Positions 172-2,008 of a DNA stretch of 14,166 nt are shown piece after piece. The position numbers and the translations under genes were made by a program. This DNA is from a virus. Under the pieces are notes generated by a model. That model had not been told where the DNA came from, ran no database searches, and was given only the letters and a program-made list of their open reading frames with translations. Each line of letters begins with the position of its first letter. Position 1 is the stretch's first letter. The stretch lies in UHGV virus genome UHGV-1657835. One strand, written 5' to 3'.

Positions 172-381
172 CCTCGTTGCCAATCAGTTAATAAGGAATT
201 AGCTATGCCTAATCGCATTCCTCTCGATCCTGTATTGCCCAAAAATTTTGACTGCACTCCTAACGAGAAACGCTTTAAAGCTCAGCTGGACGCCTAGTGG
301 GACCATCCATATGGGGTTACACAACCTGACGGGAAAATTGTAGTTTATTGTCTGAATGGTGGGGCGTGGGACCGTCCATCC

Positions 382-789
382 GTGCTTTGTTTGGCAGATA
401 ACTATGATGAAGCCTGTGAACTTGCCGAAAGACAGCAGGCAAGCTGGGTAAAAACACGGTCTGAACCGACATTCATGTTTTCAAAAGAACCGCCATTTAT
501 ACTGGCGAGGATGTCGCAGCGACCGGATCATCAACAAGAAATTGTTGCTGAATTTTCCTCAAGGGATGAGATGAATCTCTTCTCATTAAAGCAGGAAGAA
601 AGGGATCGCGTCGAAGTGTCTCCAACTCTCGACCACAACCGGATGAACCTGGCCCAGCTCGCCTGGTACAGCAAAGAATTAGAGATGTCTATTGCCCGGC
701 TTGAAAACGAAAAAGCCGCTATCCAAGTCCAGCACGAAGTAGTTCTGAACCGGATTAGAGAAATGCAAAACGATAACAGGGGATTTTGA
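382..789 (+). CDS. Hypothetical protein with coiled-coil C-terminus; the frame continues upstream to ATG 205 but is broken by an in-frame TAG at 295-297
   Basis: ORF-track ORF with GTG start at 382. The same frame is open back to ATG 205, which has a good RBS (AAGGA, 194-198), with a single TAG at 295-297 in between. TGA 787-789 abuts the ATG of the next gene. Confidence 0.55.
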   Translation: MLCLADNYDEACELAERQQASWVKTRSEPTFMFSKEPPFILARMSQRPDHQQEIVAEFSSRDEMNLFSLKQEERDRVEVSPTLDHNRMNLAQLAWYSKELEMSIARLENEKAAIQVQHEVVLNRIREMQNDNRGF

Positions 790-1146: not shown

Positions 1147-1272
1147 TCTATACAGGCATGTATAACAACAACGAGCCTATTAGCTGTCAACAACGTTATT
1201 TCCTCAAATAAGAAAAAGCAGAAAACAAATTGTTTAAGGTCACAAATTGTGGCCTTGATGGAGGAGGGAGGC

Positions 1273-1503
1273 TTATTGGCTATGGCTAAAAATCAAATTA
1301 GACACTTCATGTTGCTGTAGCTCATCAAGATCCGAGGCCACAAAACCTTTTCCGAAAAACTTCACAAGTAACTCACTAGCCGCATCATTGTCACCTATTA
1401 CACGAAAGTCATACGGCAACGTCGCAAGTTGACGATGTAATCCTGCTGAGAAAGTCGAATCTAACAGCGCCCAGAATTCCCACCGCAGGATAATACTCGC
1501 CTC
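1273..1503 (-). pseudogene. Possible gene remnant: protein-like open frame with no start codon
   Basis: Minus-strand frame of about 76 codons (EASIILRWEFWALLDSTFSAGLHRQLATLPYDFRVIGDNDAASELLVKFFGKGFVASDLDELQQHEVSNLIFSHSQ*) bounded by stops, with no ATG or GTG start. The composition looks protein-like, unlike the overlapping ORF-track ORFs in this region. Confidence 0.2.
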
Positions 1504-2008
1504 TTAATACTGTATATATGTTGTTACGATATGTTTTTCTGTCTCTAAAAAAAGATGTTAATAGAATGCTAACCATTGAAGGGGATAAAAATATACAATT
1601 CCAACAAACGTTATTTTTAACAATTTTTTTCTTTGCGTTGACTTTCCCGGACACCTTGTCTGACCGAAGGTGCGCGAAAGCCACTTTTTCCTTCCTGAGT
1701 TATCCACAAAGTTATGCACTTGCAAGAGGGCCATTTTCTACATATTGTGGTGGCTAACAGATGAAATGAATGTAGATTAATTGAAGATAAGGAGAAAATT
1801 TGAGATGCAATCATGACGTTAATAGATAGGGTCTGCATTACAGACCCCACCCGCATCAAGGAATTAGCCGTTCCCTGATGTTTTTCCGAAAACATGTGCC
1901 GTAAGCTCACGTTAACGACTTTCATTCACCGAATCCAACTATATAGGGGTTGGGTTTCTACGTCAACGTGAGCAAGTGCACCTTTACATTTGACAAGGAA
2001 CCACCTGA

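Follow-up and report, generated by a model that had tools for sequence, protein, structure and literature searches.

The window analysed here is a stretch of 14,166 nucleotides (nt) of the viral genome UHGV-1657835, and the subject is a candidate sense/antisense module at 1640-2146, where a copy of the Escherichia coli nrdA promoter, a conserved and folded non-coding region and a small open reading frame (ORF) for a hydrophobic peptide follow one another on the plus strand. The original prediction had singled out 1147-2008 as a gene-poor region of some 860 bp that holds a cluster of hairpins and a protein-like frame without a start. That AT-rich stretch (34-43% GC) is mostly explained as a patchwork of a dead primase-gene fragment, the borrowed nrdA promoter and the conserved folded region that leads into an ORF of 45 residues.

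Over positions 1000-2300 the window is 99.8% identical to phage P7 and to Salmonella phage SJ46, which makes it a P7/SJ46-type P1-like phage-plasmid, and 99.9% identical to many phage-plasmids of E. coli, Salmonella and Shigella. P1 is among the most used and best annotated of the model phages, and phage-plasmids of the P1 type are now known to carry resistance genes in Enterobacteriaceae. The alignment of P1 itself to the window begins only at 1670 and extends rightwards at 96% identity, with the window in the reverse orientation of the P1 map. P7-type genomes have upf93.6 and upf94.2 in place of hot and lxr, the two genes that P1 carries where the window has a recombination scar at 1490-1660, and both phd-doc and humD lie close by. 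A comparative study counts the interval pmgT-humD as one of eight regions that vary strongly among P1-like phage-plasmids (PMC9603915).

A conserved ORF for a predicted small membrane peptide

One base past the reported end of the gene-poor region begins a plus-strand ORF of 45 codons (2009-2146, MNAFFQFLSAFLDAPIISQILAIILIIVLILLLRSVKNGIMHWLT), preceded by the Shine-Dalgarno (SD) sequence AAGGA at 1995-1999. It is present in three clades, namely a P7-type, a P1-type and a distant clade that is about 79% identical and resides in IncFIB-type phage-plasmids. Start, stop and the length of 45 codons are kept in all three at 24% nucleotide divergence, while the adjacent non-coding DNA carries indels, and the SD is retained between clades as AAGGA or GAGGA. 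The frame is the only open one of the six, the ratio of non-synonymous to synonymous differences per site (pN/pS) stands at about 0.5, and residues are replaced conservatively, by exchanges among the hydrophobic I, V, L and F. The peptide has one predicted membrane helix (residues 15-33, with a mean Kyte-Doolittle hydropathy of 3.1) followed by a basic C-terminal tail, and its grand average of hydropathy (GRAVY) is 1.56. The module as a whole is intact in three contexts, beside pmgV, beside a type I restriction-modification system, and with or without hot; in the distant clade hot is adjacent and the downstream side differs, with the type I restriction-modification system located there.

SJ46 (J46_0085) and PGAP (WP_000123562.1) list the product of the ORF as a hypothetical protein, and beyond that label the source databases hold no name for the peptide. 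The P1 and P7 records do not annotate it and place upfM/upf91.3 on the opposite strand. A search of 5.8 billion proteins returned two truncated variants of the peptide, and a HMMER scan of 1.84 billion representatives gave four hits, all of them disrupted copies of the P1-type and distant-clade peptides. No homologue was found in the GTDB genomes, and IMG/VR together with metagenomes yielded only the three known clades, with 68 loci in which the peptide is encoded almost from end to end; with three clades only, there is no extra diversity on which covariation could be measured. The independent disrupted copies in public assemblies (L062 3001-3132; L063 3001-3150; P0001-P0004) show three differing frameshifted tails, and next to one of them an IS1 transposase gene overlaps the 3' end of the ORF, an apparent IS1 insertion. 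Set against 68 near-full-length loci, such copies are anecdotal.

The ORF also contains a small, conserved plus-strand hairpin, GTGCAT-TTTTAG-ATGCGC at 2034-2051, which covers codons 9-15 and in which the sole change between clades falls in the loop. Conservation is 92% in this 5' part of the ORF and 76% over its full length, and the hairpin may be an element of translation control. A longer pairing within the ORF, 2024-2043 with 2117-2136, was discarded since it is not conserved across clades.

A copy of the nrdA promoter and a conserved leader

Upstream of the ORF, at about 1640-1748 on the plus strand, lies a copy of the ypaB-nrdA intergenic promoter region of E. coli. It holds two DnaA boxes, TTATCCACA at 1700-1708 and TTATGCACT at 1712-1720, a -35 element TTGCAA at 1720-1725 and, after a spacer of 17 nt, a -10 element TATTGT at 1743-1748, from which a transcription start near 1755 is predicted. 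Each of the 5426 complete E. coli genomes searched has a chromosomal site that positions 1685-1738 match at 98-100% identity; in the E. coli stretch used for comparison (L066) the matching site lies 124 nt upstream of nrdA, within the annotated ypaB. The site is not new as such, as the P1 records M95666 and NC_005856 already annotate it as 'nrdA-like promoter' with 'dnaA box'. Its direction is rightwards, opposite to all neighbouring genes and away from hot.

The E. coli nrdAB promoter contains DnaA boxes and is regulated by the cell cycle. The copy in the window shares with it about 100 bp of near-identical sequence, including both DnaA boxes and the -35 element TTGCAA. The homology ends ahead of the -10 element, the alignment diverging from 1739 on, so that the -10 reads TATTGT in the window and TATCTT in E. 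coli nrdA. The E. coli -10, the NrdR-box region and the nrdA leader are all missing from the copy, which precedes a structured leader and the 45-residue ORF rather than a reductase gene. The original prediction had also allowed for a protein-binding locus in this region; this seems to hold for the two putative DnaA boxes of the promoter copy and not for the palindromes that it had pointed to.

The minus-strand ORFs annotated over this region in P1 and P7 do not alter its gene-poor character; they are not conserved, in agreement with the earlier view that 1147-2008 has no convincing ORF. Both upfM and upf91.4, the latter at the position of P1 upfN, were rejected as genes, being broken by stops and frameshifts in the distant clade, and the P1 starts of the minus-strand ORFs at the upfM and upfN positions differ from those in the window. 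The third, upf91.6 in P7 and upfO in P1 (window 1558-1734), is the counterpart of E. coli ypaB (L066 507-650, minus strand). It is identical to YpaB over about its first 32 residues, which extends the homology to E. coli to about 1640, and the two N-termini are alike because each frame lies opposite the nrdA promoter, on the other strand of that region; it may be that neither of the two is a genuine gene. A CRISPRi knockdown and the deletion survey cited with it found upfN and upfO to be non-essential for lytic growth of P1, and upfM is not among the CRISPRi-tested P1 genes in the essentiality table (PMC10695390). Dispensability of upfN and upfO in lytic growth neither supports nor excludes any of the models considered below.

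From the predicted start at about 1755 to the ORF, the small-ORF messenger RNA (mRNA) would have a leader of about 254 nt (1755-2008, plus strand). Most of it is occupied by a conserved non-coding block, which was delimited at 1785-1973 from the between-clade alignment. Identity between clades is 90% in the block and 76% in the 45-codon ORF, while the flanks (30 nt before and 35 nt after) fall to 58-60%; the block's 90% may also be set against the pS of about 0.40 at synonymous sites of the ORF. Near its left edge the leader carries an invariant strong SD, AAGGAG at 1789-1794, followed by a mini-ORF of three codons at 1805-1816 (ATG-CAA-TCA-TGA), which is ATG-TAA in the distant clade. No plus-strand terminator was found ahead of the 45-codon ORF in a terminator scan.

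All the hairpins of the original prediction fall within the block, and its notion of a hairpin cluster has held up well, since 1815-1980 folds beyond chance as judged by shuffle z-scores and the block is conserved. The inverted copies GCTCACGTTAACG and CGTCAACGTGAGC are located at 1905-1917 and 1961-1973 (13 nt, 92% complementary, 43 nt apart), and belong to a long plus-strand hairpin at 1905-1973 with an outer stem of 13 bp that has one mismatch and an inner stem at 1931-1957. The perfect 7-bp stem GGGTCTG-catta-CAGACCC exists, at 1829-1847 and not at 1831-1849. The hairpin ATGTTTT-tccg-AAAACAT was likewise placed two bases off, at 1876-1893 for 1878-1895; its 5' arm is variable in P1 and has an indel in the distant clade, and as it is not conserved it is not counted as a feature. 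Overlooked at the time were the hairpin of 10 bp at 1854-1880, the nrdA-like promoter with its DnaA boxes at 1700-1748, a strong minus-strand promoter at 1938-1966 and the ORF at 2009-2146. Two further candidates in the leader were set aside. A pairing of 1769-1778 with 1974-1983 is not conserved across clades, and a 21-codon ORF at 1813-1878, though open, differs at 6 of 21 residues in the distant clade, with almost all of the nucleotide changes in the alignment being non-synonymous.

A minus-strand promoter and a predicted antisense RNA

Within the leader lies a sigma-70-type promoter that points leftwards (1938-1966, minus strand), with the -35 element TTGACG at 1966-1961, a 17-nt spacer, the -10 element TATAGT at 1943-1938 and a probable start near 1931. 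It has 10 of 12 consensus matches, is the top-scoring promoter-like site of this region in the window, in P1 and in the distant clade, and is identical in all 14 distinct aligned sequences. P1 annotation names the site 'PupfN'. The hairpins thus lie between a rightward promoter and a hydrophobic ORF and themselves contain a leftward promoter, an arrangement that makes a sense/antisense pair likely, rather than an isolated RNA.

This promoter could equally be taken for an ordinary mRNA promoter, as its name in P1 suggests. Here the hairpins would form the structured leader of a leftward message that supplies hot, a homologue of theta, in P1 and in the distant clade, the promoter would be orphaned in the P7-type window, in which hot has been replaced, and the small ORF would experience antisense effects, if any, only as a by-product. 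Both P1 and the 79%-identity clade do have hot leftward of the module in the same orientation, no minus-strand terminator was seen in a scan from the promoter to hot, and hot is reportedly expressed in lysogens as well as in lytic growth. However, the ORF that would be read from the promoter (upfN in P1, upf91.4 in P7) is not conserved, the DNA from the block to hot is poorly conserved whereas the block itself is, block and promoter are unchanged in P7-type genomes without hot, and hot has a late promoter of its own, LPhot. We regard a leftward message of this kind as unlikely.

The transcript proposed instead is a cis-antisense RNA of at least about 110 nt, running from about 1931 to 1820 on the minus strand and fully complementary to nt ~70-176 of the leader. 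It is predicted from its fold, from the asymmetry of G-U pairs between the strands and from the conservation of its stems, and would consist of three hairpins: A at 1918-1886; B at 1880-1854, with 10 bp and a 7-nt loop; and C at 1852-1824, with 13 bp that contain GGGTCTG/CAGACCC. The minus-strand RNA from 1931 to 1815 has a minimum free energy of -43.2 kcal/mol (z -4.9), which none of 200 shuffles matched. The plus strand of the same interval reaches -29.1 kcal/mol (z -3.3), 14 kcal/mol less favourable, because several minus-strand G-U pairs become A-C mismatches. The 3' end of the antisense RNA is uncertain, with sequence conservation reaching to 1785.

Comparison of the window with the distant clade shows that substitutions avoid the stems. 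Only 3 of the 14 differing columns are paired, although 64 of the 113 compared columns are (hypergeometric P = 0.005), and all three changes retain pairing: one pair in hairpin C is compensatory (U-A to C-G) and one goes from G-U to A-U. Hairpin B varies between clades in its loop only, at 3 of 7 positions. Fold z-scores, strand asymmetry, conservation of the block, stem-avoiding changes and the one compensatory pair thus support the structured non-coding RNA that had been suggested, at the level of a structural prediction, while the Rfam match that might have gone with it was not obtained.

Hairpins acting only in cis, as a leader structure controlling translation or stability of the peptide's mRNA, would dispense with an antisense RNA altogether; the minus-strand promoter match would then be fortuitous, or conserved only through its position in a stem. 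The plus-strand leader does outfold its shuffles, with a z of -2.8 for 1756-2030 and of -3.9 for 1900-1980 (-26.0 kcal/mol). In the hairpin at 1905-1973 the consensus fold across clades has a C>U change at 1906 that keeps a G-U pair on the plus strand only, the inner stem can form three G-U pairs on the plus strand alone, and both the -35 and the -10 of the minus-strand promoter are within its stems. The upstream SD and mini-ORF are conserved, and a helix close to the SD is predicted. Over 1815-1931, by contrast, the minus strand is the one that folds better, and there the G-U pairs of hairpins A-C turn into A-C on the plus strand; a promoter that has 10 of 12 matches with 17-nt spacing and does not vary among three clades is also hardly fortuitous. 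We judge a purely cis-acting leader to be quite improbable. The G-U asymmetry favours the minus strand left of about 1931 and the plus strand to the right of it, and this fits transcription of the plus strand across the whole block and of the minus strand only from about 1931 leftwards, as the sense/antisense pair would have it.

Recombination debris to the left of the module

The left half of the stretch has another origin. The start-less frame of 76 codons at 1273-1503 on the minus strand, which had been taken for part of a decayed gene, is present as described when translated, and corresponds to residues 109-174, the C-terminal 66, of a 174-residue primase-like protein (58 of 66 identities, 88%, E = 4e-40 by BLASTP). 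The parent gene is intact in phage PhiR41_1, where it adjoins the umuD homologue of that phage, and its product matches PHROG 849 'DNA primase' (Toprim-type) with E = 9.5e-54; Pfam gave no match for the 174-residue protein. Homology at the DNA level to PhiR41_1 spans about 1225 to 1478 and includes some 50 nt past the stop codon. The remnant (1225-1478, minus strand) is accordingly the 3' third of the gene, with the N-terminal 108 residues missing and unrelated umuD-flank DNA beyond about 1478. No start codon heads the frame, and the sole in-frame start is an internal TTG at 1419 (48 codons). In the P7 reference genome IS903 is inserted within the remnant at the window equivalent of about 1410 (P7 record, stretch L002, 2911-3967); the window, like SJ46, has no IS903 and shows the uninterrupted insertion site.

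Between the remnant and the promoter copy lies the scar at 1490-1660, which on alignment with the LF82 plasmid is homologous to the DNA upstream of umuD/humD in LF82/Cyrano-type phage-plasmids. At 1508-1527 it holds a LexA box that has degenerated, TACTGTATATATGTTGTTAC, and after this an AT-rich spacer. The left half-site is whole and the right half-site is gone, whereas the LF82 counterpart has the intact box TACTGTATACACATACAGTA; the broken box is a relic of an LF82-type umuD/humD regulatory region that is now without a gene to control. The homology of the primase tail, taken together with that to umuD-upstream DNA, identifies 1225-1660 as a recombination scar between P1-like and SSU5/LF82-like elements. 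Further left, the homologue of P7 upf94.2 (window 205-789, plus strand) has a nonsense change relative to P7 at 295-297 (TGG>TAG, W31*), and the gene is thus either a pseudogene in the window or restarts at GTG 382.

A sister locus in LF82/Cyrano-type phage-plasmids

The LF82 plasmid (NC_011917.1; stretch L064) carries the same DnaA-box nrdA-like promoter at ~1531-1668 on the plus strand, with the elements TTGCAT-17-TATCTT, and some 60-80 nt further on a bidirectional intrinsic terminator, AAAAAGCCCAGTTGACTAGGCTGGGCTTTTT. Promoter and terminator together predict a short RNA of about 85 nt from what would be a DnaA-controlled promoter. On the minus strand (L064 1634-1720) there is a candidate small RNA (sRNA) that resembles AgrB and ends in a strong terminator. 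It scores 27.6 bits (E = 0.014) against Rfam RF02891 (AgrB), below the gathering score of 40, and the likeness spans the loop of the first hairpin, AGAGCC.C.AACUC. A second copy of the 16 nt with which the sRNA gene begins, TAAGTATCTGGCGACT, lies at L064 1878-1893, about 75 nt upstream of an amphipathic ORF of 27 residues (L064 1968-2051, plus strand; MVNLLFKIVPPMFAIIKAIIEYVNQRP), whose peptide has no match in Pfam or NCBIfam. AgrB is the antitoxin RNA of dinQ. The layout of the LF82 locus resembles a dinQ/agrB type I design at the same position, and it suggests that the nrdA-promoter intergenic site is a recurrent host for such modules.

A candidate type I module

A promoter, a structured leader, an antisense promoter within that leader and a hydrophobic ORF make up the layout of a type I toxin-antitoxin locus, and for this reason an antisense-gated membrane peptide is proposed as the preferred reading. 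Whether 1640-2146 indeed forms one compact sense/antisense module, in which a cis-antisense RNA gates a DnaA-box-promoted mRNA for a membrane peptide, appears to us evenly balanced. Toxicity of the peptide, for which we argue by analogy, is a step that we hold with less confidence than the module itself.

Drawn after ldr/rdl, hok/sok and tisB/istR-1, the mechanism would be as follows. The rightward, nrdAB-derived promoter with its two DnaA boxes would make an mRNA with the structured leader of ~254 nt that encodes the single-helix peptide of 45 residues, and the leftward sigma-70 promoter within that leader would make the three-hairpin RNA, which is perfectly complementary to it. Once both RNAs are made, they would interact through pairing of the antisense RNA with the leader far upstream of the peptide's own ribosome-binding site, and the duplex would either trigger cleavage or decay of the mRNA or block the upstream SD and mini-ORF (1789-1816), a possible entry site for ribosomes. 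The peptide would in this way be kept off for as long as the plasmid-prophage is present, and occupancy of the promoter by DnaA would tie sense transcription to the replication state of the host.

Known systems offer parallels. The antisense RNAs of ldr/rdl and hok/sok find their target upstream of the ribosome-binding site that serves the toxin itself, and in tisB/istR-1 the target of the antitoxin RNA is an upstream ribosome standby site. With ldr/rdl and hok/sok the module shares a small (<60 residues) hydrophobic peptide with a single helix, a long structured 5' leader, and a short structured cis-antisense RNA, predicted here, with its promoter in the leader and pairing upstream of the toxin's ribosome-binding site; the upstream SD and ORF of the leader are comparable to mok in the case of hok, and the replicon is of plasmid type and adjoins another addiction module, phd-doc. 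It differs in having no detectable sequence relationship to Hok, Ldr or Fst and no Rfam hit to Sok or Rdl, and in that its sense promoter is a DnaA-box nrdA-promoter copy. The systems tisB/istR-1 and dinQ/agrB are type I loci with a link to the SOS response, and their antitoxin RNAs block either an upstream ribosome standby site or a leader element. Here the likeness lies in an antisense target far upstream of the start codon and in a neighbourhood of DNA-damage and replication genes (humD, hot, LexA boxes), and for dinQ/agrB also in the LF82 sister locus, where an AgrB-like sRNA has its 16-nt target repeat in the leader of the 27-residue ORF, albeit with a match to AgrB under the Rfam gathering score. 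In contrast to those loci, with their divergent trans-acting sRNAs and about 20 nt of pairing, the predicted RNA of the window would be cis-antisense with more than 100 nt of complementarity, and the sense promoter has no intact LexA box, its putative control being by DnaA. As regards the generic features of type I systems, the peptide is a small (below about 60 residues) hydrophobic protein with a predicted transmembrane helix, and the antisense side would be represented by the promoter in the leader and the predicted three-hairpin RNA, which lacks a canonical terminator.

Several observations weigh against this reading. Pfam, NCBIfam, PHROG and PADLOC give no toxin-family match for the peptide, and the known type I toxins (Hok/Gef, Ldr, Fst, TisB, Ibs, ShoB, DinQ, ZorO and others) are absent from the hits up to E = 1 in Pfam and up to E = 10 in NCBIfam. 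Membership of the Ldr/Fst group through a 'D-A-P-I-I..I-L' motif was considered and rejected: there is no BLASTP alignment to LdrA, and a hand-typed Ldr profile scores the peptide at 2.8-5.0 bits, a level within the range of shuffles (11-38 of 1000 reach it). In Rfam nothing in the whole window passes the gathering thresholds; with permissive ones the top hit for 1100-2300 is BsrG, at chance level (15 bits, E = 0.64), and the known antisense families (Sok, Rdl, IstR, AgrB, SIB, OhsC, OrzO and others) have no match at or near the gathering score. Formal covariation is not significant, the one compensatory pair being equalled by 77 of 500 shuffles with three clades only. The terminator scan found no canonical terminator or U-tract for the minus-strand RNA after hairpin C, so that this RNA may run on leftwards, into hot in P1. 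On the sense side, the -10 element (TATTGT) is unlike that of nrdA and the promoter scored below the scan threshold. Lastly, the high identity of the block could come in part from recent recombination and not from selection.

In their most sceptical form these doubts amount to features at the level of DNA, or accidents: leftovers of the P1-like/LF82-like mosaic or palindromes for protein binding, without a function as RNA, next to an ORF that is a minor hypothetical membrane protein or is not expressed. The left half of the stretch is truly recombination debris, phage mosaicism is able to create blocks of high identity, the covariation statistics are as just given, and the peptide has no homologues beyond three closely related clades. 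Accident does not, however, account easily for stems that are depleted of substitutions and include a compensatory change, nor for the G-U asymmetry, which indicates RNA rather than duplex DNA. The ORF, moreover, keeps its length and frame at 24% divergence beside non-coding DNA with indels, and its SD is conserved. We consider an explanation without RNA function to be very unlikely.

Implications for the P1 family

Literature searches on type I toxin-antitoxin systems in P1, on upfM, upfN and upfO, on P1 transcriptomes and on the peptide motif turned up no description of the module. The known part of the locus consists of ordinary debris and an already annotated promoter; the new part is plausibly the conserved sense/antisense region with its under-annotated small membrane ORF. 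If the module is not real, the region is still accounted for by the pseudogene fragment of a primase, the scar with the LexA box and the borrowed promoter. If it is real, P1-family phage-plasmids would have a second, RNA-based module for maintenance or stress alongside phd-doc, the P1/P7 annotation of upfM and upfN would have to be corrected, and the locus would be a rare case in which a cell-cycle promoter of the host (nrdA/DnaA) has been captured and put in charge of a small membrane peptide.

A further step, possible though doubtful at present, is that a family of type I toxin-antitoxin systems not recognised before, with a captured DnaA-box nrdA promoter and cis-antisense gating, resides in the phage-plasmids of the P1 family. 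Were this true, the P1 annotations upfM and upfN would be artefacts of reading the wrong strand, and SSU5/LF82-type phage-plasmids would have met the same need at this locus in another way, by an AgrB/DinQ-like pair behind the same promoter. Killing or dormancy of the host would then be coupled both to the loss of the prophage and to the status of DnaA and replication in the cell.

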